Part shown: positions 17,237 through 40,265 of the stretch, piece after piece | Layout of the letters: the number at the start of each line of letters is the position of its first letter | How positions within the stretch are numbered: position 1 is the stretch's first letter | The notes under the pieces: model-generated | Databases searched by the model: none | What the model was told of the DNA's origin: nothing | The model's input: the letters and a program-made list of their open reading frames with translations, nothing else | DNA from: an uncultured bacterium | GTDB taxonomy: Bacteria > Patescibacteriota > Minisyncoccia > Phycocordibacterales > PALSA-1337 | Assembly (NCBI GenBank): GCA_963701025.1 | Contig: OY969557.1 | Location: 506,042-570,041, forward strand | Reading direction: 5' to 3' | Length of the DNA: 64,000 nt | Position numbers and translations under genes: made by a program

Positions 17237-17545
17237 ATGAAAGTCATGCCGACAGAAGAAGTAGATGCCTTCATAGAGACCTGTGAGAAAAGGGTCCGTG
17301 CCAAAATCAGCAGACGTTTTCTAATGCTTGAAAAGTTTGGTCCTATGATCCGTATGCCTTATAGCAGATATATTCTCCCTGGAGTTTTTGAGCTTCGTAC
17401 AACAGGAAAAGACAACGTGCGGCTAGTTTATGCATTTATAAACGATAAGGCGGTCGTGTTCTATGCGTTTATAAAAAAGACCGAGGAGATAAGCGCCCAC
17501 GAGATAGGCTTAATAAAACAAAAGCTTAAGAACTTGCATTTATGA
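17237..17545 (+). CDS. Type II toxin, Gp49/RelE-like (HigB-like, DUF891 family)
   Basis: About 100 aa, toxin-first order, overlapping an XRE-HTH partner by ATGA. Confidence 0.6.
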   Translation: MKVMPTEEVDAFIETCEKRVRAKISRRFLMLEKFGPMIRMPYSRYILPGVFELRTTGKDNVRLVYAFINDKAVVFYAFIKKTEEISAHEIGLIKQKLKNLHL

Positions 17546-17847
17546 CTTATACGGCATATACTACCTTTATGAAAACAGTAAATTGGAGAGAGAGGCATGA
17601 GAAAGACATGGAAGACCCTGAATACAGAAGGGAGTGGGATGCTCTTGGGCTCGAATTCGATATTATCCACGCCATCATCCGCAAACGCATCAAGGACGAC
17701 ATGACCCAAGCCCAGTTGGCCAAAAAGATGCGCACCGGCCAGGCGACTATTTCGCGTTTGGAGTCTGGAACCTACAATCCTTCAGTGAAATTCCTTCGCA
17801 GACTGGCCAAGGCGTTAGACGCGGAGCTCACGATCAGGTTGGTGTGA
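17542..17847 (+). CDS. XRE-family HTH antitoxin (HigA-like)
   Basis: HTH motif (MTQAQLAKKMRTGQATISRLESG) and a 4-nt overlap with the upstream toxin. Confidence 0.7.
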   Translation: MTYTAYTTFMKTVNWRERHEKDMEDPEYRREWDALGLEFDIIHAIIRKRIKDDMTQAQLAKKMRTGQATISRLESGTYNPSVKFLRRLAKALDAELTIRLV

Positions 17848-20447: not shown

Positions 20448-21902
20448 TTATTGGACGATATTGAACACTCCATCGCTCGAATCGCAATTACTTGTGCCTG
20501 ATTGACAGATCTGGACGCTATATTGGCCGTCGGGAACGGTACCGACGTCACCGGTTCCACCATTACCATTTATATTACTGTATTGGCCCACATCCCAACT
20601 ATATGAATCCTGGTTGATTGCTATGCCTGTAGCTATCGTATATGGCGCGAGCATATACATCGGACACATCGAACCGGCCGGGCACGGTGCTTGATACGGC
20701 ACGAGCTTCAAGTCAGCCGTCGTTGCGGCGAAATAATACGGCGATGTCCAGACGATATTCTGCGTCGTTCCACGCGCCCACGCTTCTCCGCCGTTGGGAG
20801 AGATTATTCTCAAAGGACTAACCGCCGTTGAACCGGTGACATTGACCGTCGAGGTCGTTTGAGCTTGCAGACCCGCATTATCCCTGACAGTGAAAGTGAT
20901 CATGTATGTGCCTGGGTTCGAATAGACGTGAGTGAAGGAAGTACTCTGGATGAAAGCCATCGCCATAGCAGGAGTGGCGCAGGTCGCCGGATAGTTGCAA
21001 TTCGGCGAATCTCCCCAATTCACGGAATAACTCAATACCCCATTGGCCGGATCGCTGGCGTGAATAGTCCATGTGCCCGTCTGATTGACAGAGAGCGACG
21101 TCGGCGCATCTATGCCGCTAATGACCGGCGTTTGACCATTCGTTACCCCATTCGTAGTGATCGTGAAATAATTATCGCTGTCATCGCACTGCGAACCATT
21201 CGTGAGACAAATCTGGATCTTGTATTGGCCAGAGGCTATTGGCGTCATTTGATCAGGACAAGATGTCGCGAACGCATCACATGGTATTGCCAAAGGTACT
21301 GAATTTCCAACATTCCAGGCATACGAATCAGAACCAAGGTTGACCCCGCTCGCAATAGTCAGAGGCGCACGCACCGCGATCATGCATCTGATCGGCTGAC
21401 CGGGCTCCGCACAGGCCGGCACAGGAAATTCAAGTCTGATGTCTCCCGTCTGATTGAGCGCGCCCGGCGTGCCGGTCCACGTGATGTACTGCGTCGTTCC
21501 GGTTTGCCACGTCTCGCCGCCATTTGGCGAAATGACTCGGAGAAAATCGGTCGGATTGTTATCGTTGTTACCGCCGCCGTTCAATATCTGGCGGGTCAAG
21601 GGCCCAAAGAAGCCGAAGGCCGGAAGACTGACGGATGTCTGATATCTGATGAGAGCGGCTTTGGTCTGCGAGCCGAAGTAGCCTTTTGCGGCACTGCCGG
21701 AACTGATGGCCGGTATGTCATAGCCGTTCGAGATGAGCCACGTCTGGAGATTGACCACATCCTGCCCGGAACTGCCGACGGTTAAGTTGTTCGAGAATGT
21801 GTAGTCTTGGGCATAGACGCTCGATTTGGCGCCGGCGACAAGGGCGATAGCGATAATGGCAATGGCAACGGCAATGGCGGTAAAAATGAGATATTTTTTC
21901 AT
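20448..21902 (-). CDS. Secreted surface protein with N-terminal PG_binding_1-like domain, repeated beta-sandwich modules (ISPNGGE.W..GTTQ.I.W) and a PKD-like domain
   Basis: Probable start MKKYLIFTAIAVAIAIIAIALVAG (signal/TM); the ORF is open to 22007. PG-binding pattern LTVGSSGQDVVNLQTWLISNGY...FGPLTRQIL. PKD-like segment YSVNWGDSP. Confidence 0.7.
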   Translation of the reverse strand: MKKYLIFTAIAVAIAIIAIALVAGAKSSVYAQDYTFSNNLTVGSSGQDVVNLQTWLISNGYDIPAISSGSAAKGYFGSQTKAALIRYQTSVSLPAFGFFGPLTRQILNGGGNNDNNPTDFLRVISPNGGETWQTGTTQYITWTGTPGALNQTGDIRLEFPVPACAEPGQPIRCMIAVRAPLTIASGVNLGSDSYAWNVGNSVPLAIPCDAFATSCPDQMTPIASGQYKIQICLTNGSQCDDSDNYFTITTNGVTNGQTPVISGIDAPTSLSVNQTGTWTIHASDPANGVLSYSVNWGDSPNCNYPATCATPAMAMAFIQSTSFTHVYSNPGTYMITFTVRDNAGLQAQTTSTVNVTGSTAVSPLRIISPNGGEAWARGTTQNIVWTSPYYFAATTADLKLVPYQAPCPAGSMCPMYMLAPYTIATGIAINQDSYSWDVGQYSNINGNGGTGDVGTVPDGQYSVQICQSGTSNCDSSDGVFNIVQ

Positions 21903-22023
21903 GCTGATGATGACGGATGAAATGGATAATTGTTTCAGACCAATGATAGCTCCTAATCGCCAAAATAGGAAGAGAAAACCGCCCCGAGGAGGGCGGCTTT
22001 CTGACACAAGAGCTTATTCGCTA

Positions 22024-25000
22024 TTAATGAGTCGCGTACCACTGATTGACCGCCGCATTGACGGCGTCCCAGATGGAGGCGGTGTAGTTTGTTTGCGGCA
22101 ACAAGGCCGTCGCGCTCACTCGAAGTCCGCTAAGCCCTTGGGTAATGGAACTCGCTTGAAGGCTGCTCGGGCTCGTTCCGTAATTTATCTGGTTGACCTG
22201 GAAAGAGGAGAAGCCTGCAGTGCCCGAAGACATGATCGTGCCATTGTAGGTGAACTGACGAGATGAACCGGCGGGGATGACGTAAGAACCATTGCTAGCT
22301 GTCGGATTGGTATCACCGGACAGGTTACCCGGGTTCGTTATAACGCCGGCAATAGGTAGATTCAGTGTGGCAGGTCCTGTGTTCGTGATACCGAGGGATG
22401 TGGACGGATTTGAACTGATATATATGGTGCTGTTAGCGGCAGTAAGCGTGAAGGAGTAGCTGACGTTATAACCAGTGGTGATAGCGACGCCACCGACATT
22501 GCTCGTGATCGGCGAACCGAGGACGGCTGATGTATTGCTGACTTGGACCACACTAGAGACGAATGTGATGGGGCTCCCGCTAAGATTTGCATTTGTCACT
22601 TGGACGGTATTGTACGACTGATCCACGATCACAACATTCGAGTTATTAGCCGCAAGGCTTACCGTAGCGCTGGAACCGTTTAGGGCACCACTTGAATCAG
22701 CGGCAACTGTACCAGAGATGGTGACCGGAATATTGCTACTAGCCGGCAACGGGATACTGATATTGGTGAACGAAACAGACGAACCATTGATAGAGCTTGC
22801 CGAGTAAGTGAGGCCGCCAGCCTTGACCTGGATATCGGAGAATAGGCTAGAAACGGAAGCGCCAGTCGTGTTTATGTTCACATTGAGAGAGTTGAGGGTA
22901 GCGGGTGCGTTCTGGACATTGATGTCGAAGACAGCGAGAGGAACATTATTAGTCTGGGCCGTGGTCGATATTTGTACCATGCCCGCAAGCGGCGAGGAGG
23001 CGTCAAGCGAGAGGGTGGCCGTTGCGGGATTGTTGGTATTTCCAGAAGTTACAGTGAAGGAATTAGACATGGCTTGAGCGCAGGAATAATTCGTACATGG
23101 GGCACCTTGATTGGTACGCTGAACAACCTGTACAAAATAAGATCCTGCTGGAACACTAGAAGGGATAATGAATGATACCGTCTGTTGATTTCCACTTATG
23201 CCAGTTACATTACCGAGTGCATAGATTGGTGATCCCTCTCCTCCAGCATAATCCAGGTTAATCAGATATTGATCTCCCTGTGATGGATTAGAGAACGTGA
23301 CACTCAACTGACTGCCAACTTGAAAAGTTTGTCCTCCTGTTGGAGACACGATACCTACACTTGGTGCATTACCAGTTATAGTCACGTTAAATTCTCCACA
23401 GCTTGTTGTGCTTATGTATGCGCCCGCAGGACAAACAGCTATAGTATATGTACCGTTTGGAATGTTAGAGATCCCTTTCCAATTACCTGATGCTGAGCCG
23501 ACATTCCACTGGAACCAACCACTATTCGGGTACGATGAGGCGAATGGATAATAAGTACTTCCAATCTCAAGATAAATATCGACGGTGGATACATTTCCAG
23601 AAGATGTCCATGTCCATGATCCAAGAGTGGATTGTTGCCAAGTGACACTACTTGAAGGAGAGGTGATTTTGATAGATGACTGGGTGGTCGTCACGGTCAC
23701 CGGCGCGGGAGTGATCGATGAAGCCGGAATCTGCGCCGTCAGAGACGTTCCATCGGTGAATTGGACATAGAGAGTACCACCGGGGAATTGCGAGCGTTCC
23801 GGCTGGCCGTACATGGACAATGTGTGCGTTCCGGCCGTGAAGGATAGCGGTACGTCATAGCTGTGGTTAAGCTGGACGCCATTCTCGTATATCACCAACG
23901 GATAGAGTCCGAAGGCCGATCCGGTGAACCAGCGTTCCCAATTATTACCGTCAGACAGATATATCCATTGAGCGGTCTTCGCCGTCGGCAGAGTCATGAC
24001 GGCGGTCCAATCCCAATCGTTCGAGGTGAAGCCTGTGCCGTTCGACGTGCCCGGTCCGAGAATGCCATATGTGCCGGCCATGTCGCTCGAAGCGCTGGCT
24101 ACGTAAGCATATAGGGATCCCTGCGACTGCGTGGTAGACGGAGCCGGGGCCGGAAAACCGGTTTGATAGGAGCAGGTATAGCCAGCGGGACATGATGGGG
24201 TCGTATTCGTGCTTCCAACCTGTACCGAAGCGCTCGTATGCGCGGTCAGGCCGGCGGCATTTTGAACAGTAAAGACGACATTGTAAGTTCCGGCCATTTT
24301 GTAGACATGACTGAAAGTCGATGTCTGGACGGATGAGCTCTTCATCGCGGAAGGTGTTAGCGCTTCGACGATGGTATCGCCCCAATTGACCGAGTAGGTC
24401 AATGAGCCATTCTGCGGATCGGACGCATTGACCGTCCACGTGCCCATCTGGCCGACATTGAGAGATGTCGGGAATGTGCCGCCGGAGATGACGGGGGGTT
24501 GAGGAGCAGTAGTCTGCGCCAGCGTGATCGTGAAATAATTGTCGCTCGAGTCATGGATCCCTATGACTGCAGGATTGCCATAATCGGAAGCCAACAGGAC
24601 TTTATATTGCCCGGCAATGATGGTTCTCGGAATATTGGTACATTGATAATTCTTACCGAGAGTAGCCGTGAAATAACCTTGGCTGACCGGAGCGCTTCCT
24701 AACAAGCATGTTCCACCATCAGCAAAATTAAGGTAGACATACACATTCCCTGTGAGACCTGATGATATCCATGTCGTCCTAAAATCTACATTTTTCACAC
24801 CGAGACTTATTTGTTCCCCTCCATTGGGATAGGTAACGGTGATGGAAGGCTGGGTGGTGCCTAATGGATTAACAACAAGACTACCGGTCGTTAACTTATT
24901 ATTGTTCGAGTCATACACATAAACCGTGTATTGACCGATAGCAAGCGCCGGCGATACAGTCACTGACCAATTACCGTTTATGACTGAAATCAAACCGCTA

Positions 25001-26340
25001 CCATATATCTTGTCACCGCCATTGCTCCCACTTAAAACAATTCCGACTTGAGTCGTACCATTAGCTGTACCCGATATAGTGGGTGTCAAAGAAGTGGTCT
25101 GCACGCTACTGGTGATAGTGGCAGATGATTGAGTTTGCACGCCACCGAATGTCACCGTGACTTGGAGACTTTGCAGGCCGGAGGTGATAGAGTACCCATT
25201 AACATTGTTTGGATTTGTACTGTAATTGATATCTGCAACCTGAACAATATTGGCTCCGCCAACCGTAGCGGAAGCACTACTCACCGTACCGTTAAATGTA
25301 AACTGGCGTGAAGCGCCCGGAGGAATCATCCAGTAGCTCGATGTGTCGCCAGCCAAAGAGGCTGGGTTCGCCATTATAGCACCTTTATCTGGGCTTGCAT
25401 TCCCATTCTTACTGGCAAAGTCAAGCATTATCGCGCTGGTGAGATATATCGGACTATTCCCTGCCGTCAGGGTGAAGGCAAAAGTAACTGGATAACTTGA
25501 GATGATTCCATTGGTTCCAACAGTAGGTGATCCAAGTGAAGCAGATGTATTGCTGACTTGAACACCGTTGTTGCTGACGGTAGAAGACGCTAGAGTGAAG
25601 TTATTACTTAAACCTTTTATAACAATAAATCCTTTCTCGTTATTAGTATTTACAGGCACGATTACGTGTGCCTCGATGTCTACTTCATATTGGCCTGGAG
25701 AAATTGGATATCCTTGCACGATCTCCGGCAGAGTAGTGTTCCAAGAAAATTGTCCGCTGCTTGCATTCAGACCGCTTGCAATCTCATCCACAATGACACC
25801 ATTAGCACTATTAACAAGATATATATACGTCTCAGAGTTAGAGGGAATATTTTGTGTCGACCATTGAATTGTAAAATTCTGACCTTGTGTAATAGTCTCT
25901 CCTCCTTTTGGATTCACAACCGTTACCGACGATTGTGTCGGATTCGTCGTTGTGCACGATCCATTGAGCGCGGCGCGAGTCAGGGCTCCGAAATATCCGG
26001 TAGCCGGGATGCCAACGCTGGCCTGATATTTGGCCACAGCGCCGGCGGTCTGGTAGCTGTAGACGCCTCTCTGCTGGCGGCCGGAAGACAAAGCCGGGAT
26101 ATCGAAACCGTTGCCCAAAAGCCACGTCTGCAAAGCGACGACGTCAGGACCCCTGCTGCCTATGGTCAGGTTAGTCGACCAGACATAGCAGGAAGAAGCT
26201 CCTCCGCCCCCACCGCCTACCGACACGGGAGTCGATATCGGCGCAATGACTTGGGCTTGTACCGAGACATACGAAAAAGCAACGATCGCGAGAGAGAATG
26301 CCGCGACCGGAACGACGAGCGAGAACAAGGCTCTTTTCAT
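22024..26340 (-). CDS. Giant secreted surface protein (1438 aa) with N-terminal PG_binding_1-like domain, long Ser/Thr/Asn-rich beta-repeat region and a PKD-like domain
   Basis: Signal peptide. PG-binding pattern (GSRGPDVVALQTWLLGNGF...GYFGALTRAAL). YSVNWGDT PKD-like motif. Paralogous architecture to the 20448-21902 gene. Confidence 0.75.
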   Translation of the reverse strand: MKRALFSLVVPVAAFSLAIVAFSYVSVQAQVIAPISTPVSVGGGGGGASSCYVWSTNLTIGSRGPDVVALQTWLLGNGFDIPALSSGRQQRGVYSYQTAGAVAKYQASVGIPATGYFGALTRAALNGSCTTTNPTQSSVTVVNPKGGETITQGQNFTIQWSTQNIPSNSETYIYLVNSANGVIVDEIASGLNASSGQFSWNTTLPEIVQGYPISPGQYEVDIEAHVIVPVNTNNEKGFIVIKGLSNNFTLASSTVSNNGVQVSNTSASLGSPTVGTNGIISSYPVTFAFTLTAGNSPIYLTSAIMLDFASKNGNASPDKGAIMANPASLAGDTSSYWMIPPGASRQFTFNGTVSSASATVGGANIVQVADINYSTNPNNVNGYSITSGLQSLQVTVTFGGVQTQSSATITSSVQTTSLTPTISGTANGTTQVGIVLSGSNGGDKIYGSGLISVINGNWSVTVSPALAIGQYTVYVYDSNNNKLTTGSLVVNPLGTTQPSITVTYPNGGEQISLGVKNVDFRTTWISSGLTGNVYVYLNFADGGTCLLGSAPVSQGYFTATLGKNYQCTNIPRTIIAGQYKVLLASDYGNPAVIGIHDSSDNYFTITLAQTTAPQPPVISGGTFPTSLNVGQMGTWTVNASDPQNGSLTYSVNWGDTIVEALTPSAMKSSSVQTSTFSHVYKMAGTYNVVFTVQNAAGLTAHTSASVQVGSTNTTPSCPAGYTCSYQTGFPAPAPSTTQSQGSLYAYVASASSDMAGTYGILGPGTSNGTGFTSNDWDWTAVMTLPTAKTAQWIYLSDGNNWERWFTGSAFGLYPLVIYENGVQLNHSYDVPLSFTAGTHTLSMYGQPERSQFPGGTLYVQFTDGTSLTAQIPASSITPAPVTVTTTQSSIKITSPSSSVTWQQSTLGSWTWTSSGNVSTVDIYLEIGSTYYPFASSYPNSGWFQWNVGSASGNWKGISNIPNGTYTIAVCPAGAYISTTSCGEFNVTITGNAPSVGIVSPTGGQTFQVGSQLSVTFSNPSQGDQYLINLDYAGGEGSPIYALGNVTGISGNQQTVSFIIPSSVPAGSYFVQVVQRTNQGAPCTNYSCAQAMSNSFTVTSGNTNNPATATLSLDASSPLAGMVQISTTAQTNNVPLAVFDINVQNAPATLNSLNVNINTTGASVSSLFSDIQVKAGGLTYSASSINGSSVSFTNISIPLPASSNIPVTISGTVAADSSGALNGSSATVSLAANNSNVVIVDQSYNTVQVTNANLSGSPITFVSSVVQVSNTSAVLGSPITSNVGGVAITTGYNVSYSFTLTAANSTIYISSNPSTSLGITNTGPATLNLPIAGVITNPGNLSGDTNPTASNGSYVIPAGSSRQFTYNGTIMSSGTAGFSSFQVNQINYGTSPSSLQASSITQGLSGLRVSATALLPQTNYTASIWDAVNAAVNQWYATH

Positions 26341-26563: not shown

Positions 26564-28732
26564 TTATTTCCTCTTCTCCACGATCTCCAGAGCAACGTTA
26601 GCCGGAACGACCTCGTAGTGATCGAATTCCATCTGGGCAGATCCTTGGCCGGACGTCATGGAACGCAATTGGGTGGTATAGCCGAACATCTCCGACAACG
26701 GGACTTTGGCGATGATGGAGATGACTTGGCCCTTTGGATTACTGCCCTCGATAAGGCCTCGCTTGGAGGCGATGGAGCCGTTGACGTCGCCCATGTACTT
26801 CTCGGGACAGACGACTTCGAGCTTCATGATGGGTTCGAGGATGACGGGTTTGGCGCGCTTGGCGGCGTCCTGGAAGGCCTGGCTGGCGGCGATCTTGTAG
26901 GCGATCTCGGACGAGTCGACGTCATGGTACGAGCCGAAAGTCAGCTCGCAGGAGATGTTGACCATCTTGAAACCGGCGACGATGCCGCGATCCATGAGCT
27001 TCGCGCACGCCTTTCTCCACGGCCGGGATGAATTCGTTGGGGATGACGCCGCCTTTGATGGAGTTGATGAATTCGAAATCGTCATAGCGGTGAATATTCT
27101 TGGGTATCTTCTCACCTTCCGGCCATGGCTCCATGGGCTTGAGAGTGAGTCTGACGTGACCATACTGGCCTTTGCCACCGGTCTGCTTGATGTATTTATG
27201 CTCGGCCTCGGCGGTGCCGAGTATGGTCTCGCGATACGCCACTTGCGGTTCGCCGACGTTGGCTTCGACGCCGAATTCGCGCTTCATGCGGTCGACCATG
27301 ATTTCGAGGTGGAGCTCGCCCATGCCGGAGATGATGGTCTCGCCCGTTTCCTGGTTGGATGAGATGCGGAATGTCGGGTCTTCATTGCCAAGCTTGCGCA
27401 GAGCCATGCCCATCTTCTCCTGGTCGGCCTTGGTCTTTGGCTCGATGCGAAGAGAGACGACCGGCTCCATGAATTTGATGACTTCGAGAATGATCGGATT
27501 GTTTTCGTCGCAGAATGTATTTGAAGTGAGGGCATCCTTTAGTCCGACGGCCGCGGCGATCTCGCCGGCGAAGACCTTCTTGACCTCTTCGCGCTTGTCG
27601 GCTTGGAGGCGGACGATGCGGCCGAGGCGCTCTTTCTTGCCGGTGGTGGAGTTGTATATATAGGTGCCGGCTTCGATGGTGCCGGAATAGACGCGGAAGA
27701 AGGTCAGTTGGCCGACGAAGGGGTCGTTCTGAAGCTTGAAGGCCAGGGCGCAGAAAGGTTCGCTGTCGCTGGCATGGCGGACGACTTCTTCGCCTGTGTC
27801 CGGATTGATGCCGTGAACAGGCGGCATGTCGAGTGGGCGACGGCAGATAATCGACGACGGCGTCGAGAACGAGCTGCACGCCGATATTCTTCAGAGCCGA
27901 ACCGGTGAAGACCGGGAAGATCTTGTTGGCGATGAACCGCGGCGCGGGCTACGCGCTTGAATTCGTCTATCGAAATCTCCTTGCCGTCGAGATAATTCTG
28001 CATGGCGACATCATCGTGTTCGACGACTTTCTCGATCATCTCGGCGCGGTATTTCTTCGCATCCGCCATAAGCTCCTCCGGAATCTCTTTCTCCACTATC
28101 TTATTTCCCATCTCGCCCTCGAAATAGTAGGCTTTCATGTTCAAAAGATCGACGACGCCCTTATGCTCGCCTTCGAGGCCGATCGGTATCTGGAATCTGA
28201 CGGCGTTCTTGTTCAGGCGCTCGAGTATGGACTTGTATGATTTCTCAAAAGAGGCGCCTGTGCGGTCGAGCTTGTTGATGAAGCAGAGGCGCGGCACCTT
28301 GCCCTCGTCGGCATAGCGCCAGTTGGTCTCCGACTGCGGCTCGACGCCGGCCACGCCGTCGAATACCACGACCGCGCCGTCAAGGACGCGCAGTGAGCGC
28401 TTCACTTCCACAGTAAAGTCGATGTGTCCCGGAGTGTCGATGATGTTGAACCGGACTTTCTTGGAGACATCGGGCTTGCCGTCGGCGCCTTTGACGCCGT
28501 TCATGTATGTCGGGTTCCAGAAGCAGGTGATGGCGGCGGCCGTGATGGTGATGCCGCGCTCGCGCTCCTGTTCCATCCAGTCCGTGACCGTGTCGCCTTC
28601 GTGCACCTCGCCGATCTTGTGCGTCATGCCCGTATAGAAGAGGATGCGCTCCGAAGTCGTGGTCTTGCCCGCGTCGATGTGGGCGATGATGCCAAAGTTA
28701 CGGACTGATTCGAGCGGATAGTCGCGGTTCAT
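26564..28732 (-). pseudogene. fusA: Elongation factor G (fusA) interrupted by three +1 frameshifts, near 27934, 27835 and 26995
   Basis: The G domain through domain V are recovered only by switching frames three times. RAAV|[11 protein letters not shown] needs an extra base removed at about 27934. LPSP|LDMPPVHG needs one C removed from a CCC run at about 27835. VREA|MDRGIVAGF needs an extra base removed at about 26995. Confidence 0.85.
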
Positions 28733-28834
28733 TGAGGTTTGGGCTTATAAATTGTCTGGGCTAAATAAAAAAGCAGTGGCTGCTTAGTGGATGGTACTAT
28801 ACGTGAAAAGGCGGGAATAATCAAATAATTATCT

Positions 28835-28866
28835 TTGCGGCTCATTTCCACCATTTGAGCCGCGAG
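28835..28866 (+). repeat. 32-nt hairpin repeat TTGCGGCTCATTTCCACCATTTGAGCCGCGAG, copy 1 (downstream flank of the toxin-antitoxin cassette and upstream of fusA)
   Basis: Inverted repeat GCGGCTCA...TGAGCCGC around a TTTCCACCATTT loop. Confidence 0.8.
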
Positions 28867-28879
28867 CAACTGATGATAC

Positions 28880-29161
28880 TCAATTATTCCCCAACCAGAC
28901 TCTGTAGATCCAATCATGCGTACCGCAAGTCATGAATGCCACGGTATCTTTGTCCACGAATTTGAAGGCGATACGATAAGTGGAATCTATCCGGATGGTC
29001 CAAATCTGCTTGCCTTTTGGTTCCAGTTTCTCGGTGTGCAAAGAAGGATAGAACGGGTTGTACCGGAACAGGCGCTCCTGTTTCTCTGCTTTCTTCTGGA
29101 CTTCAACGGGCAGGAGCTTATAGCGCCTTTTGAATTCATCGGTTACAACGACCTTCCACAT
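28880..29161 (-). CDS. Type II toxin, RelE/YafQ-like mRNA interferase
   Basis: 93 aa with a C-terminal TCGTHDWIY segment like the YafQ/RelE GTH motif. It is preceded by a small antitoxin-like gene. Confidence 0.55.
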   Translation of the reverse strand: MWKVVVTDEFKRRYKLLPVEVQKKAEKQERLFRYNPFYPSLHTEKLEPKGKQIWTIRIDSTYRIAFKFVDKDTVAFMTCGTHDWIYRVWLGNN

Positions 29162-29166
29162 GGAAT

Positions 29167-29373
29167 TTAGGCGCGAAGTTCCCTAAGGCTGTTGATGCGC
29201 GTCGCTCGGCCGGTGCGTATGTCTCGTTCGGCTCTATCTATGCTCTGAAGAAAAGACTTGTTGAACATGCCGAATTCGGCCGCCATCCGCTCGAAGCGAT
29301 TAGCATCGAAACTGACGGAGACTGTCCGTGCTTTCTTGCCTTTGGCTACTTTCATGCGCATATTCATGCGCAT
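29167..29373 (-). CDS. Putative antitoxin partner (small, basic; family unclear)
   Basis: 62-68 aa ORF whose stop is 6 nt before the toxin start. The alternative start is the Met at 29355. Confidence 0.4.
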   Translation of the reverse strand: MRMNMRMKVAKGKKARTVSVSFDANRFERMAAEFGMFNKSFLQSIDRAERDIRTGRATRINSLRELRA

Positions 29374-29404
29374 ATTGTATCAAGACGCGTGAAATACGCA
29401 ATCC

Positions 29405-29436
29405 TTGCGGTTCATTTCCACCATGTGAGCCACAAG
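29405..29436 (+). repeat. 32-nt hairpin repeat, copy 2 (upstream flank of the toxin-antitoxin cassette)
   Basis: TTGCGGTTCATTTCCACCATGTGAGCCACAAG matches copy 1 at 27 of 32 positions (31 of 36 with 4 extra flanking nt), about 570 bp away in direct orientation. Confidence 0.8.
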
Positions 29437-29866
29437 AAAAGAAAACTTGCACCAGAACATGCCTAAAAACATTTTCAATATTGACCTTCAAAAATTTTCC
29501 GTTAAACTTATAGGGTATGCTCTATAAATATTATCGTATTACATATCATCAGACTGACAGGATCGCCCAGATTTTCGGGGATTTAGGGGTCGTATGCCTA
29601 GCATCTGTAGCAATCCCCTCGCTTTTCAATGATTTTAATATTTTCGCCATATCGTTCGGAATCATACTTTCTTTATTCTTCTTATGCCTGACATAATCAT
29701 CGTCTATCTATTCTTCGCAGTTATAGGACTGGGCTTCATACTATTGACTCTGCCTACTATGATCGCCCGCCGTATCGTTGAGCAGCAAAAGAGAGAGGGT
29801 CTATACAAAACAAAAAAGTAAGCCTACGCCTGCTTTTTTGATGTTCCAAATTGGAATTTCAAACGA

Positions 29867-30337
29867 CTACCACGCGAAGTGGGCGAAGGCCTTGTTGGCC
29901 TCGGCCATCTTGTGGACGTTCTCGCGCTTCTTGACGGCTTCGCCTTCGTTCTTGGAGGCGGCGATGATCTCGTCGGCGAGCTTCAAGTGCATGGGCTTGC
30001 CTTTCTTGCCGCGGGCGGCTTCGACGATCCATTTCATGGACAGCGCGTTCTTGCGCTCGGGACGGACTTCGCGAGGAACCTGGTAGTTGGCTCCGCCGAC
30101 GCGGCGAGAACGAACCTCCATGGCCGGGGTGGTGTTCTTGAGGGCGAGCTCGAAGACTTCAATCGGATTCTCGACTTTGGCCTGCTCCTTTATAGCGTTC
30201 ATACAGCCATAGACGATGGTGCGGGCGGTCGACTTCTTGCCCTCCTGCATGACATAGTTGATGAGCTTGGCGACCTTGAGCGAATCGAAAGTCGAATCGG
30301 GCTTGAGATCTCTCTTTATGTTTGTTTTTCTGCGCAT
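29867..30337 (-). CDS. rpsG: 30S ribosomal protein S7
   Basis: Canonical uS7. Confidence 0.95.
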
Positions 30338-30404: not shown

Positions 30405-30824
30405 TTACGCTTTTACTGCTTTCGGCTTCTTGTTTCCATACTGGCTGCGGCCTTTACGGCGCTTCTCCACTCCGGCGCAGTCGAGGACGCCGCGGACGAT
30501 GGAATAGCGCAGACCAACGTCTTTGACGCGGCCACCGCGCAGGAGGACCACGGCGTGCTCCTGCAGGTTGTGGCCCTCGCCCGGTACATAAGCCGTCACT
30601 TCGACGCCGTTGGAAAGGCGCACGCGGGCGATCTTGCGGATGGCGGAGTTAGGCTTTTTCGGTGTCTTGGTCGTCACTTTGACGCAAACGCCGCGCTTGA
30701 AAGGCGCGGGAATATAGCTCGGCCGATTCTCGATCGAGTTAAACGTGCGGGTGAGAGCGATCGACTTCGACTTCCTCTGGAAGCGTACGCGATTTCTTTT
30801 TGTAAGCTGATTGATTGTGGGCAT
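30405..30824 (-). CDS. rpsL: 30S ribosomal protein S12
   Basis: Canonical uS12 (PTINQL...). Confidence 0.97.
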
Positions 30825-32027: not shown

Positions 32028-32267
32028 TCACCCCTCCCTATTCCATTCTCTCTTTGAAATCCCCGCCTGCCGTAAGATTTCGGCCAGTAGATACTTTGAG
32101 ATATCGCCAGTATGAGGATTTGGTATCCGGACTTTGAGCGGTCCTTTTGACATGAACAAGTGACGTCCACCGGAATATGGGCCATCGAAACCGAAAACGC
32201 GGAACCTGCGGATAAGCTCACGCGGAGAAACGCTCCTAAGCATGTCGGAATTGTTTCCGCTTATCAA
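32028..32267 (-). CDS. hicA: HicA-family mRNA interferase toxin
   Basis: 79 aa, LIRRFRVFGFDGPYSGGRHLFMSKG...HTGDISKYLLAEILRQAGI is a HicA/YcfA pattern. Confidence 0.7.
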   Translation of the reverse strand: MISGNNSDMLRSVSPRELIRRFRVFGFDGPYSGGRHLFMSKGPLKVRIPNPHTGDISKYLLAEILRQAGISKREWNREG

Positions 32268-32481
32268 AAGAGAATGACAAACCGGTCACGCGTTCGCCGG
32301 AACGGACTTTGACCATGAGCCAATCCTCCAAAACTTCTTGCAATTCGCGACGGCATGCTTCGAGGCTTCGGGCGCTAGCCCAGACGCCGCGTAAGGCTTT
32401 GATCTCGCCAAAATAGCTCCTGTTAGGAAGGATCTTATATGAAGCCGTATCGAGTTTTGAGCTTATAAATGAAGAAAGCAT
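32236..32481 (-). CDS. hicB: HicB-family antitoxin (UPF0150-like)
   Basis: YFGEIKALRGVWASARSLEACRRELQEVLEDWL matches the HicB core. It overlaps hicA by 32 nt. Confidence 0.6.
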   Translation of the reverse strand: MLSSFISSKLDTASYKILPNRSYFGEIKALRGVWASARSLEACRRELQEVLEDWLMVKVRSGERVTGLSFSFDKRKQFRHA

Positions 32482-37031: not shown

Positions 37032-37864
37032 CTAGAATGCGCCGAATTCATCGATTATTCTCTGCTCGTCTTCGAGATCGACCGACTTTTTATGCTTGGC
37101 GCCTTTAATTCCCTTGACCCGTTTCTCGCATTCCGGCCATGAATGATGGACTTCGATGACGCCACCGACCATGCTCACGTATGAATACGCTTTGGTCCGC
37201 CGGCTGGCTGACGAGCGAGAGGAAGCCGACTTCTTTTTCTCCAAGTCGGCCTCGTTGTGCGAGATGTCCAATATATCCGGCAAGTCATAGCCGCCGATAG
37301 CGTACCTTTATACAAGGCAATCTTCCTTCCGTCGGCAAAAGCCGTGGCGATGTGATCGCACCTCTCATTGCCTAGAATCCCGATGTGACCGCCGACATAT
37401 TTCCACTCGATGTTTCCGCCGGATGATTTGACGGCGCCGGCGACATCATCCAGTTTTTTCCAAAGGTCTGCGTTCAATACGCTTTTCCTCGCCTTGGTCT
37501 TCCAGCCATTCTTCTTCCAAGAGTGAATCCACCTCGTTATTCCGTTGATGACGTAAGAGGAGTCTATGTAGAGGATGATTCGTACGCCCTTTGATTCTTT
37601 GCCTTGTAACTCGCATAGCGCGTGTGTCGCCGCCATGAGCTCCATCCTATTATTCGTCGTGTCTTTTTCGCCACCGCCAAACTCTGTAACCTTCGCGGCC
37701 TTATTTGCGGCCTTGTTTTTATTTTTTCCGACGACCATTCTTCCGCTGGCTGGCGGATTTCCATTTTCAATGACGATCGCTCCCCAGCCGCCTGGACCCG
37801 GGTTTCCGCGAGATGAGCCGTCAGTGAAGATGGTGACGGGATTTTTATTATTCATAGATGTCAT
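37032..37864 (-). CDS. rnhA: RNase HI with C-terminal Cauli_VI-like hybrid-binding domain; reading frame broken by one frameshift near 37300
   Basis: RNase H fold motifs (TDGSS..., MELMAA, DSSYV, NERCDHIATAFA). After ...ALYKG the frame shifts to ...YAIGGYDLPDILDISH...YSYVSMVGGVIEVHHSWPECEKRVKGIKGAKHKK, a Cauli_VI/HBD pattern. Consistent with a 1-nt deletion in a TT run. Confidence 0.7.
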
Positions 37865-38105
37865 GGTCTCTTATTTGGTAAAATCTCGCCATGCCTTTGC
37901 CTTCAAACTTGAATATGATGCGAAACTTGAAATTAACAGAGAAAGCATACCGTCCCGCAAGCCTGCCCGACAGTTTATGAGTCTTCAATTCGACATCAAA
38001 AGGGTCCTTTTTGAAAATCGATTCCTTCTCCCCTGTCAAAATCTTTACTGCGCTCGGCAATCTCCTGAATTGCTTGACGAATTTGGAATGAAAAAAGATG
38101 TGCAC
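37848..38105 (-). CDS. RelE/ParE-family toxin
   Basis: 85 aa with KLSGRLAGRYAFSVNFKFRIIFKFE...RFYQIRDHDIY. Confidence 0.65.
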   Translation of the reverse strand: MHIFFHSKFVKQFRRLPSAVKILTGEKESIFKKDPFDVELKTHKLSGRLAGRYAFSVNFKFRIIFKFEGKGMARFYQIRDHDIYE

Positions 38106-38115
38106 GCGTGCAATT

Positions 38116-38334
38116 CTATCTTATATCGCGCACTGAATCAAAATGCTTCCAATTCTTTCCTTGCTTGAAATCTTTGTCCGCCCTATCTAACTCCATCGCC
38201 AACCTCTCGGTATTCCACATCCTCAAAATATGCCGGAAGAACTCGCTCGTTGAAGCGAAGCGGCCGGCCTTGACCTCCTTTTTGACTTCAGCGGCCAGAG
38301 AAGCGGGTAACGATATGTTGATGACGGAGCGCAT
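38116..38334 (-). CDS. ParD/RHH-type antitoxin
   Basis: 72 aa with ISLPASLAAEVKKEVKAGRFASTSEFFRHILRMW, a ribbon-helix-helix pattern. It lies 10 nt upstream of the toxin. Confidence 0.6.
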   Translation of the reverse strand: MRSVINISLPASLAAEVKKEVKAGRFASTSEFFRHILRMWNTERLAMELDRADKDFKQGKNWKHFDSVRDIR

Positions 38335-40212: not shown

Positions 40213-40235
40213 GGACAAAGTATAGCAGGAGATTC

Positions 40236-40265
40236 GGGTCAAATGGTGGAAATGAGCCGATTGGG
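40236..40265 (-). repeat. Third copy of the TTTCCACCATTT hairpin motif (inverse orientation), between recJ and the HIT gene
   Basis: The minus strand reads CCCAATCGGCTCATTTCCACCATTTGACCC. The 20-nt core is identical to copy 1. Confidence 0.7.

Follow-up and report, generated by a model that had tools for sequence, protein, structure and literature searches.

Three hairpins in the window

We analyzed a 64-kb stretch of contig OY969557.1 (hereafter, the window) from an uncultured bacterium of the Patescibacteria, or Candidate Phyla Radiation (CPR), with attention to a short imperfect palindrome that occurs in it three times (copies 1–3, Table 1). The consensus of this element is GGCTCA-AATGGTGGAAA-TGAGCC, extended by 3–6 variable, complementary bases per side. 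Copies 1 and 2 lie in the minus-strand gene order rpsL, rpsG, a 1,134-bp insert, and fusA. Within the insert they enclose 538 bp, which contain the antitoxin open reading frame (ORF) and the toxin gene of a toxin–antitoxin (TA) pair. The core of copy 1 starts 14 nt past the toxin stop codon and approximately 100 nt upstream of the fusA start codon, and the −35 hexamer of the TA promoter directly adjoins copy 2. An earlier reading of the window, made from its letters alone (the sequence-only reading), had described a TA cassette of about 540 bp between the repeats, wedged between rpsG and fusA. The cassette does have this extent, but an AT-rich segment of 430 bp intervenes between it and rpsG. 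The third copy, which the same reading had placed in the recJ/HIT spacer, was confirmed. The divergent recJ (start 40212, minus strand) and HIT (start 40279, plus strand) genes are 66 bp apart, and copy 3 lies in this spacer, inverted relative to copies 1 and 2.

The 32-mers previously given for copies 1 and 2 are present letter for letter at 28835 and 29405. They agree at 28 of 32 positions rather than at 27, and the similarity extends to a direct repeat of 39 nt with 85% identity (28831–28869 versus 29401–29439). With up to three mismatches, the 20-nt core GGCTCATTTCCACCATTTGA matched the window at three places (28839–28858, plus strand; 29409–29428, plus strand, with two mismatches; 40239–40258, minus strand), while 100 shuffles of the window gave no match. 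A fourth copy in the window was found neither by a 17-mer scan with up to four mismatches nor by scanning all 64 kb with a covariance model and the filters switched off. Folding gave a hairpin for all three copies, as the inverted repeats had led the sequence-only reading to propose. The hairpins of copy 1 (−18.1 kcal/mol, z −4.3) and copy 2 (−13.8 kcal/mol, z −3.8) are stable, and that of copy 3 is weaker (−8.9/−6.3 kcal/mol). No Rfam family matched the window at the gathering threshold, and for positions 28700–29900 there was no match even at E ≤ 5.

The element family and its neighbor gene

The exact pattern GGYTCATTTCCACCATKTGA was scanned against one genome per prokaryotic species, and 40 loci were returned, compared with about four expected by chance. 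Approximately 35 of them are in metagenome-assembled genomes (MAGs) of the CPR, about 23 MAGs in number. All of these CPR loci have a perfect left arm GGCTCA, although this arm was absent from the search pattern. The other 5–6 matches lie in coding sequences of Bacteroidota or Clostridia without the left arm, as chance matches should. The CPR loci are labeled as Komeilibacteria (five contigs from one MAG), Saccharibacteria, Portnoy-, Nomura-, Staskawicz-, and Pacebacteria, and Parcubacteria; for a few bins the label is of another kind (for example, Gammaproteobacteria or Pacearchaeota) and is unconfirmed. In Komeilibacteria, an 85-nt composite unit is present in at least three copies.

An alignment of the 40 copies showed little or no variation in the 23-nt core, and 92.5% of cells are paired. 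The three outer stem pairs have each undergone 16–17 double-sided changes, with combinations such as tgt/aca, tgc/gca, aac/gtt, atc/gat, act/agt, and att/aat. The covariation score was reached in 0 of 500 shuffles, and controls in which the alignment was slid collapsed. In variants such as GGCTCAATTGGTGGAATTGAGCC, both A·A mismatches become pairs and the GGTGG pentaloop remains. The covariation of the outer pairs and the repair of the A·A mismatches indicate that the hairpin, or the corresponding cruciform, is under selection. Orthologous copies, in a methyltransferase gene tail and in the grpE–dnaK spacer, are present in two pairs of Saccharibacteria. Their cores are 96–100% identical, the flanks are only 42–70% identical, and the outer stems differ; the core has therefore been kept in place by purifying selection amid diverged flanks. 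Of the three explanations that the sequence-only reading had offered for the repeat, a REP-like structured repeat is the best supported by this dispersed, covarying palindrome, which is found in many genomes and mostly at gene ends.

A viral, phage, or plasmid origin was rejected. The core is absent from IMG/VR, a phage collection gave no match, and a plasmid collection gave only chance-level matches (E ~0.7). A full-text literature search for the element sequence returned only an unrelated cDNA paper from 1991, and keyword searches retrieved no description. Judging from Rfam, the phage, plasmid, and IMG/VR collections, and the searchable literature, the hairpin element is apparently undescribed so far. 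Identity with a known structured RNA, a CRISPR array, or a TIGR (tandem interspaced guide RNA) array was rejected, as there is no Rfam match and the copies are solitary. TIGR arrays consist of regular tandem units that are processed into 36-nt RNAs and are located beside genes for Nop-domain proteins (PMC12045711), features that rule out a TIGR-Tas array here.

By far the commonest neighbor of the element is a gene encoding a protein of 110–230 aa. The protein has a Pro-rich disordered N-terminus (replaced by a transmembrane one in a subgroup), a long helix, and a C-terminal winged helix-turn-helix (wHTH) domain of about 75 aa, without an HUH/Y1 catalytic domain. Pfam assigns the protein to HTH_24/MarR/DeoR-like families. 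The AlphaFold model of the domain has a predicted local distance difference test (pLDDT) score above 90, and its nearest folds are MarR and ArsR. The family comprises at least 1,690 clusters at E ≤ 1e-10, and the domain, like the core, is absent from IMG/VR. The genes upstream of the wHTH gene are variable, and no gene for a ParA-like partner is linked to it.

The gene and the palindrome are tightly coupled. In 13 loci selected by the motif, the hairpin lies 10–50 nt past the wHTH stop codon. In all loci picked by the protein alone, a GGCTCA...TGAGCC palindrome is situated within the gene or after it: over the stop codon (L041; L numbers denote loci fetched from other genomes), 4–26 nt after it (L045 and L142), or within the N-terminal coding part (L048 and L140). 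In all the DNA fetched, such a palindrome accompanies 30 of 30 tblastn matches of the wHTH domain, either within the gene or shortly after it, and both gene and palindrome are absent from 80 of 80 rpsG loci of relatives of the window. Among 184 family proteins, the arms are encoded in frame as AQxxxxNEP in 32 and as a GSNGGN terminus, with the hairpin over the stop codon, in 9, against a chance expectation of about 0.01. No variation is seen in the recognition helix SDATATRY or in the arm GGCTCA, while the loops vary in distant members. This gene linkage and the co-invariance of SDATATRY with GGCTCA suggest that the wHTH protein most likely recognizes the GGCTCA/TGAGCC arms.

Two further observations concern this protein. 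In a subgroup (P0029–P0037), a single N-terminal transmembrane helix and a basic stretch take the place of the Pro-rich N-terminus; one member (L142, 5934–6332) has a GGCTCA...TGAGCC hairpin 26 nt past its stop codon. The charge distribution around the transmembrane helix predicts a membrane-tethered DNA-binding domain on the cytoplasmic side. In L029 (238–330), six TGAGCC words with a strict 12-nt period are located between the wHTH stop codon and the hairpin, and this iteron-like array suggests cooperative head-to-tail binding.

Most copies of the element are located 6–130 nt past a stop codon, on either strand, and often between convergent genes. Relative to the flanking genes, 11 copies are in the same/same, 9 in the opposite/opposite, and 6 in the same/opposite orientation, showing no bias. 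A strand-specific RNA element was ruled out on this ground, because the orientation is approximately half and half relative to both the flanking genes and the wHTH gene. Some copies are within genes (tsaD, where the copy is in frame, valS, a methyltransferase gene tail, and the dnaK tail), and several in-frame copies in conserved genes read C-G-S-N-G-G-N-E-P. In the TsaD of one MAG, the hairpin falls where 15 residues are inserted compared with solved structures of this protein. The copy in valyl-tRNA synthetase (ValRS) falls in a variable loop with zero net insertion, so in-frame insertion is claimed for TsaD only.

That copies predominate directly behind stop codons, in either orientation and frequently between convergent genes, could also be explained if they were plain terminators or mRNA-stabilizing 3′ hairpins, alike by common descent, which insulate modules from the highly expressed str operon. 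Their stems are stable, and A-tract/T-tract contexts typical of bidirectional terminators are present in L009, L031, and L034. However, only 7 of the 40 copies have at least five T residues in the 9 nt after the stem, some copies lie within ORFs, and copy 3 is situated between two gene starts. A separate canonical stem with a T-run is found 50 nt beyond copy 1, which is thus probably not the terminator of the cassette. The invariant 11-nt loop, the arm sequence, and a dedicated partner gene would all be needless for termination, and we consider this explanation highly doubtful.

The toxin–antitoxin cassette moves without the hairpin

The pair enclosed by copies 1 and 2 has the layout of a type II TA system, in which a RelE/HigB/ParE-superfamily toxin is encoded behind a small antitoxin gene, and this two-gene layout is kept in L131 and L133. 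The toxin has 79 homologs, several of which are named RelE or HigB by their sources; these homologs exceed the Pfam threshold that the toxin itself narrowly misses (Table 1). The antitoxin ORF is listed with 68 aa, whereas its homologs have 66 aa and start at the counterpart of ATG 29367, so the protein is probably 66 aa long. The −10 hexamer of the promoter ends 7 nt before this ATG, and the TA mRNA is therefore likely to be leaderless. A perfect tandem repeat of TTCATGCGCATA, each unit of which contains the palindrome ATGCGCAT, covers the antitoxin start and is kept in L131 and L133; it is probably the autoregulatory operator of the pair, as a candidate read from sequence. An exact-protein look-up found no record of proteins identical to the toxin or to the ribosomal protein S7 of the window.

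The same cassette, with the same antitoxin and the same ATGCGCAT repeat, is present in two other contexts: in L131 it separates map from ndk, and in L133, which is syntenic with the window, it lies immediately in front of tuf. The toxins are 88% and 86% identical to that of the window, respectively, and both loci lack the hairpin. Homology of the cassette starts 3 nt after copy 2, including the promoter, and ends about 10 nt past the toxin stop codon, just before copy 1. The possibility that the hairpins are part of the TA cassette was ruled out by alignment with L131, L132, and L133. Because hairpin-less cassettes exist and the homology ends inside the hairpins, the cassette is mobile and the hairpins are at its seams without belonging to it.

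The rpsG–fusA junction was compared with those of 80 metagenomic relatives (L051–L130; about 600 kb in total), whose S7 proteins are 70–95% identical to that of the window. Spacer lengths extend from 6 to 4,443 nt, and several of the spacers contain RelE-like TA genes. At least 13 junctions are empty, with 6–85 nt of AT-rich DNA and no palindrome. A GGCTCA...TGAGCC hairpin is absent from the 80 junctions and from the whole of these 600 kb or so. Bracketing repeats as a general feature of the hotspot were likewise ruled out, as the 36 occupied junctions have no seam repeats. The variable spacers and the lack of hairpins in relatives indicate that rpsG–fusA is an insertion hotspot that works without the element. 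The sequence-only reading had considered the case of a repeat confined to three copies beside a universally present TA pair; instead, about 35 CPR loci carry the element, and the junctions of relatives vary, some being empty. In the recJ–HIT spacer of relatives (HIT 73% identical), a different 90-aa gene is present and there is no hairpin. In L134, a second sample of the same organism, copy 3 is identical. Overall, the comparison shows that translation-gene operons (rpsG–fusA, fusA–tuf, rplC–rplD, and map–ndk) are insertion hotspots in this clade and that one RelE-type cassette has moved among them.

These comparisons bear on the proposal that the repeats are the recombination site of the cassette. 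More generally, the copies could be sites of the lox, dif, or attC type at which a recombinase of the host, or an unlinked one, inserts and excises cassettes, with the TA pair as an excisable cassette; integron cassettes and the pdif modules of Acinetobacter plasmids would be the nearest analogs. Copies in the same orientation flank single modules in three unrelated genomes: the TA pair in the window, a RhuM/Fic gene right after fusA in L017, and an NYN gene in L041, where the two copies are identical over about 40 nt. In L041, the NYN gene is followed by an HTH–McrBC–wHTH module that ends in a third co-oriented copy, so that three copies divide two consecutive modules. The invariant asymmetric center would account for the polarity of such sites, and TA, restriction-modification, McrBC, and Fic genes are over-represented among the neighbors. 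Other copies adjoin HEPN/MNT, restriction-modification, and DUF6429 genes, and L023 has a single copy after a Panacea-type TA pair at its rpsG–fusA junction. In L001 (4910–4941), a perfect 30-nt palindrome, TTCAATGGCTCAACCGGTTGAGCCATTGAA, with the same arms as the element and a 6-nt center, directly follows the gene of an Xer-like tyrosine recombinase (integrase).

However, the same TA cassette occurs in two contexts without the hairpin, its homology stops inside the hairpins, and the 80 rpsG–fusA junctions, many of them with TA genes, lack both the hairpin and bracketing repeats. No recombinase was found in the window, which was searched by tblastn with the Xer-like integrase and a serine recombinase from related loci, or in L041. 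Many copies stand alone, either at the ends of ordinary genes or within ORFs, and the two copies in L008 are inverted relative to each other. The outer arms differ among copies of one genome, unlike recombinase-binding arms, and the attC core sites (RYYYAAC/GTTRRRY) are absent. We regard recombination sites as unlikely, although the idea stays alive because direct copies flank accessory modules in L017 and L041.

A third proposal had been an operator, and we considered one through which a global wHTH transcription factor would control fusA, the TA operon, and HIT and/or recJ. The MarR/ArsR-like winged-helix fold of the partner protein suits this role. When the window copies are read as GGCTCAAATGG..., they are located 3–14 nt upstream of, or over, a promoter-like −35 hexamer of the downstream gene, the promoters being TTGATT-17-TATAGT for fusA and TTGCGT-16-TACAAT for the antitoxin, with a −10 hexamer TAAAAT for HIT. 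A comparable arrangement is seen in L031 and L034. In relatives, however, the site is absent before fusA (80 relatives), from the recJ–HIT spacer, and at the TA promoter of L131. Downstream of the 40 copies, the mean promoter-like score is 4.85 versus a background of 5.1, showing no enrichment. The majority of copies come after stop codons or are within ORFs, randomly oriented, and the site is placed after or inside the gene of the putative regulator, not in its promoter. What stands of the regulator proposal is thus the tight coupling to a wHTH family, whose site the element probably is; a role as operator, at three places where relatives lack it, seems very improbable. In our reading, the element is neither the recombination site of the cassette itself nor a conserved operator of fusA, recJ, or HIT.

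Several other features of the region deserve mention. The AT-rich segment between rpsG and copy 2 (module A) contains two small hydrophobic ORFs on the plus strand (29517–29696 and 29684–29821). It has no Pfam match and no homolog in any fetched locus, and it is a second inserted module. The four frame segments of fusA result from three single-base insertions relative to two relatives, at approximately 27936, 27837, and 26997, and the gene is either a pseudogene or affected by a local assembly error; rpsL, rpsG, tuf, rpsC, rplV, and rpsS nearby are intact. Between fusA and tuf are two very large ORFs (519 and 1,438 aa), whose counterparts in L133 have PG_binding_1/PKD domains; they are another non-ribosomal insertion inside the str/S10 gene cluster. 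The window contains three further type II TA pairs, none of which is flanked by the hairpin.

Table 1 Coordinates of the hairpin copies and other features in the window
Feature	Position	Strand	Remarks
TA pair, RelE/HigB-like toxin and HTH partner	17237–17847	+	Between rplC and rplD; named by eye, no database match
Two very large ORFs	20448–26340	−	
fusA (elongation factor G, EF-G)	26603–28732	−	Hotspot flank; reads in four frame segments
Promoter-like TTGATT-17-TATAGT (28824–28796), then terminator-like stem (28785–28771) with T-run tail	28765–28824	−	Between copy 1 and fusA
Hairpin copy 1	28832–28868	−	Core GGCTCAAATGGTGGAAATGAGCC, perfect; covariance model 53.5 bits, E 5e-13
RelE/HigB/ParE-superfamily toxin, 93 aa	28880–29161	−	Pfam HigB-like 25.8 bits, ParE_like 21.2 bits, both just under cut-off
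Antitoxin ORF	29167–29373	−	No Pfam match
Tandem 12-nt repeat, two units	29351–29374		TTCATGCGCATA
TA cassette promoter TTGCGT-16-TACAAT	29374–29401	−	Read from sequence; kept in the hairpin-less cassette of L131
Hairpin copy 2	29402–29438	−	Variant GGCTCAcATGGTGGAAATGAaCC, two core changes; covariance model 44.2 bits
AT-rich module A, 430 bp	29439–29866	+	GC ~0.38–0.41
rpsG (ribosomal protein S7)	29867–30337	−	Hotspot flank
rpsL	30405–30824	−	
TA pair, HicA/HicB-like	32028–32481	−	Named by eye
TA pair, RelE-like and ribbon-helix-helix (RHH)	37848–38334	−	Between RNase H and recJ; absent from relatives L135–L139
Hairpin copy 3	40229–40265	+	GGgTCAAATGGTGGAAATGAGCC; covariance model 45.9 bits

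Comparison with known systems and proposed role

Each of the nearest known systems lacks a fit with the element in at least one defining feature. Repetitive extragenic palindromes (REPs) of Proteobacteria, with their bacterial interspersed mosaic elements (BIMEs), REP doublets forming hairpins (REPINs), and REP-associated tyrosine transposases (RAYTs), are one such system. Like the element, they are imperfect palindromes of about 35–40 nt, extragenic and mainly located after genes, in both orientations, and sometimes clustered with related hairpins. The two systems also have in common one protein gene that is always flanked by the repeat, and vertical maintenance together with a patchy distribution between relatives. 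In contrast to REP/RAYT, the partner is a wHTH protein without an HUH/Y1 domain, no RAYT (IS200/IS605-like) was found, and there is no conserved 5′ GTAG. The element is present in far fewer copies, its core is the same in different class-level lineages rather than species-specific, and some copies are in frame within genes. This last feature is reminiscent of Rickettsia palindromic elements (RPEs) and of palindromes resembling miniature inverted-repeat transposable elements (MITEs), which occur between genes and in frame in conserved genes, as the element does in tsaD. RPEs are 100–150 bp long, unlike the element of about 30–40 nt, in which neither terminal inverted repeats nor target-site duplications were observed.

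Integron attC sites and Acinetobacter pdif sites (XerC/D) are structured or inverted-repeat sites around small modules, often TA pairs, and the co-oriented array in L041 resembles them. Unlike attC, the element has no R″/R′ core sites and no IntI, and its inner stem and loop are conserved while its outer ends are variable, which is the opposite of attC. Unlike both attC and pdif, the TA cassette moves without the site. The Xer/dif site has an 11-6-11 architecture with constant arms, whereas the element consists of GGCTCA with variable outer bases around an 11-nt center (5 nt if AAT/AAA is counted as stem), and in related palindromes the spacing between the arms ranges from 2 to 15 nt, beyond the 6–8 bp of a dif center.

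With ParB–parS, Noc–NBS (Noc-binding site), and MatP–matS, the element shares a short palindrome that is kept over wide phylogenetic distances, with few copies per chromosome and no dependence on orientation. As with parS, the palindrome is located in or next to the gene of a DNA-binding protein (30 of 30 gene matches; 41 of 184 proteins encode the arms) and also in other ORFs. Noc binds the membrane, which parallels the transmembrane wHTH subgroup. Unlike ParB and Noc, the partner is a generic winged helix of the MarR/ArsR type, no ParA-like partner is linked, and the exact core has a patchy distribution in the CPR. The asymmetric center and the covarying outer stem further suggest hairpin formation, unlike parS-type sites. 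The DNA uptake sequences (DUSs) of Neisseria and the uptake signal sequences (USSs) of Haemophilus are short conserved words common to related lineages, often present as inverted pairs after genes and in particular frames within genes. They occur about once per kb, compared with about once per 20 kb or less for the element; as a further difference, the DNA-binding domain of the wHTH protein is predicted to be cytoplasmic.

With moderate confidence, we favor the view that the element is a REP-like dispersed palindrome and likely the cognate site of a CPR-specific winged-helix protein. The analysis shows the family of elements, its covariation, its coupling to the wHTH gene, and the mobility of the TA cassette without it. 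The small palindrome can form a hairpin or cruciform, is selected for this structure and for an exact core, and is common to many CPR genomes, with copies chiefly at gene ends and module seams (as in L017, L041, and L023), in either orientation and occasionally in frame, and patchy between relatives. The lineage-specific small winged-helix protein, whose own gene always has a copy, would recognize the GGCTCA/TGAGCC arms. In the window, an independently mobile RelE-type TA cassette has entered the rpsG–fusA hotspot, with two direct copies exactly at its seams; the third copy is between recJ and HIT. Bound or extruded copies may serve as boundary or anchoring sites, rather than as promoter operators or classical terminators; alternatively, they may provide short portable homologies where modules come and go.

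Several points weigh against this view. In the window, three of three copies lie just upstream of, or over, promoter-like sequence in the same sense, which would be a coincidence if the element were a repeat at seams. Because the scan required exact matches, it favored identical cores. The 11 nt at the center show asymmetry and strict conservation, for which neither the binding of a dimer to the two arms nor any role proposed here accounts. Among related GGCTCA/TGAGCC palindromes with other loops, some of which are beside copies of the element, the arms are 2–15 nt apart; with such spacing, a hairpin fits better than a double-stranded dimer site. The copy number is low compared with classical REPs (three per 64 kb in the window and 1–6 per MAG in 8-kb samples), the element is not linked to any transposase, and the wHTH gene is not encoded in the 64-kb window. 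Finally, binding of the wHTH protein to the element is something we infer from sequence relationships; this, the conserved asymmetric center, and the low copy number are where the view is weakest.

We also consider, with low probability, that the element and its winged-helix partner make up an undescribed site-specific DNA system found throughout the Patescibacteria. Such a system might exchange cassettes without a linked integrase, co-oriented hairpins marking TA and defense modules and helping to mobilize them, or anchor the chromosome of these minimal cells in a parS/NBS-like manner. If so, the three copies in the window would be working sites of that system.

The CPR (Patescibacteria) represents a large share of bacterial diversity, in which cis-acting DNA signals and the movement of TA and defense modules are almost unstudied. 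The 23-nt palindrome and the wHTH family of at least 1,690 clusters provide a concrete candidate protein–site pair in these bacteria. Should the element prove to be merely a REP-like repeat, it would still be a useful marker for CPR comparative genomics. If the element marks or drives the exchange of modules, it would give streamlined genomes a new route of gene flux.

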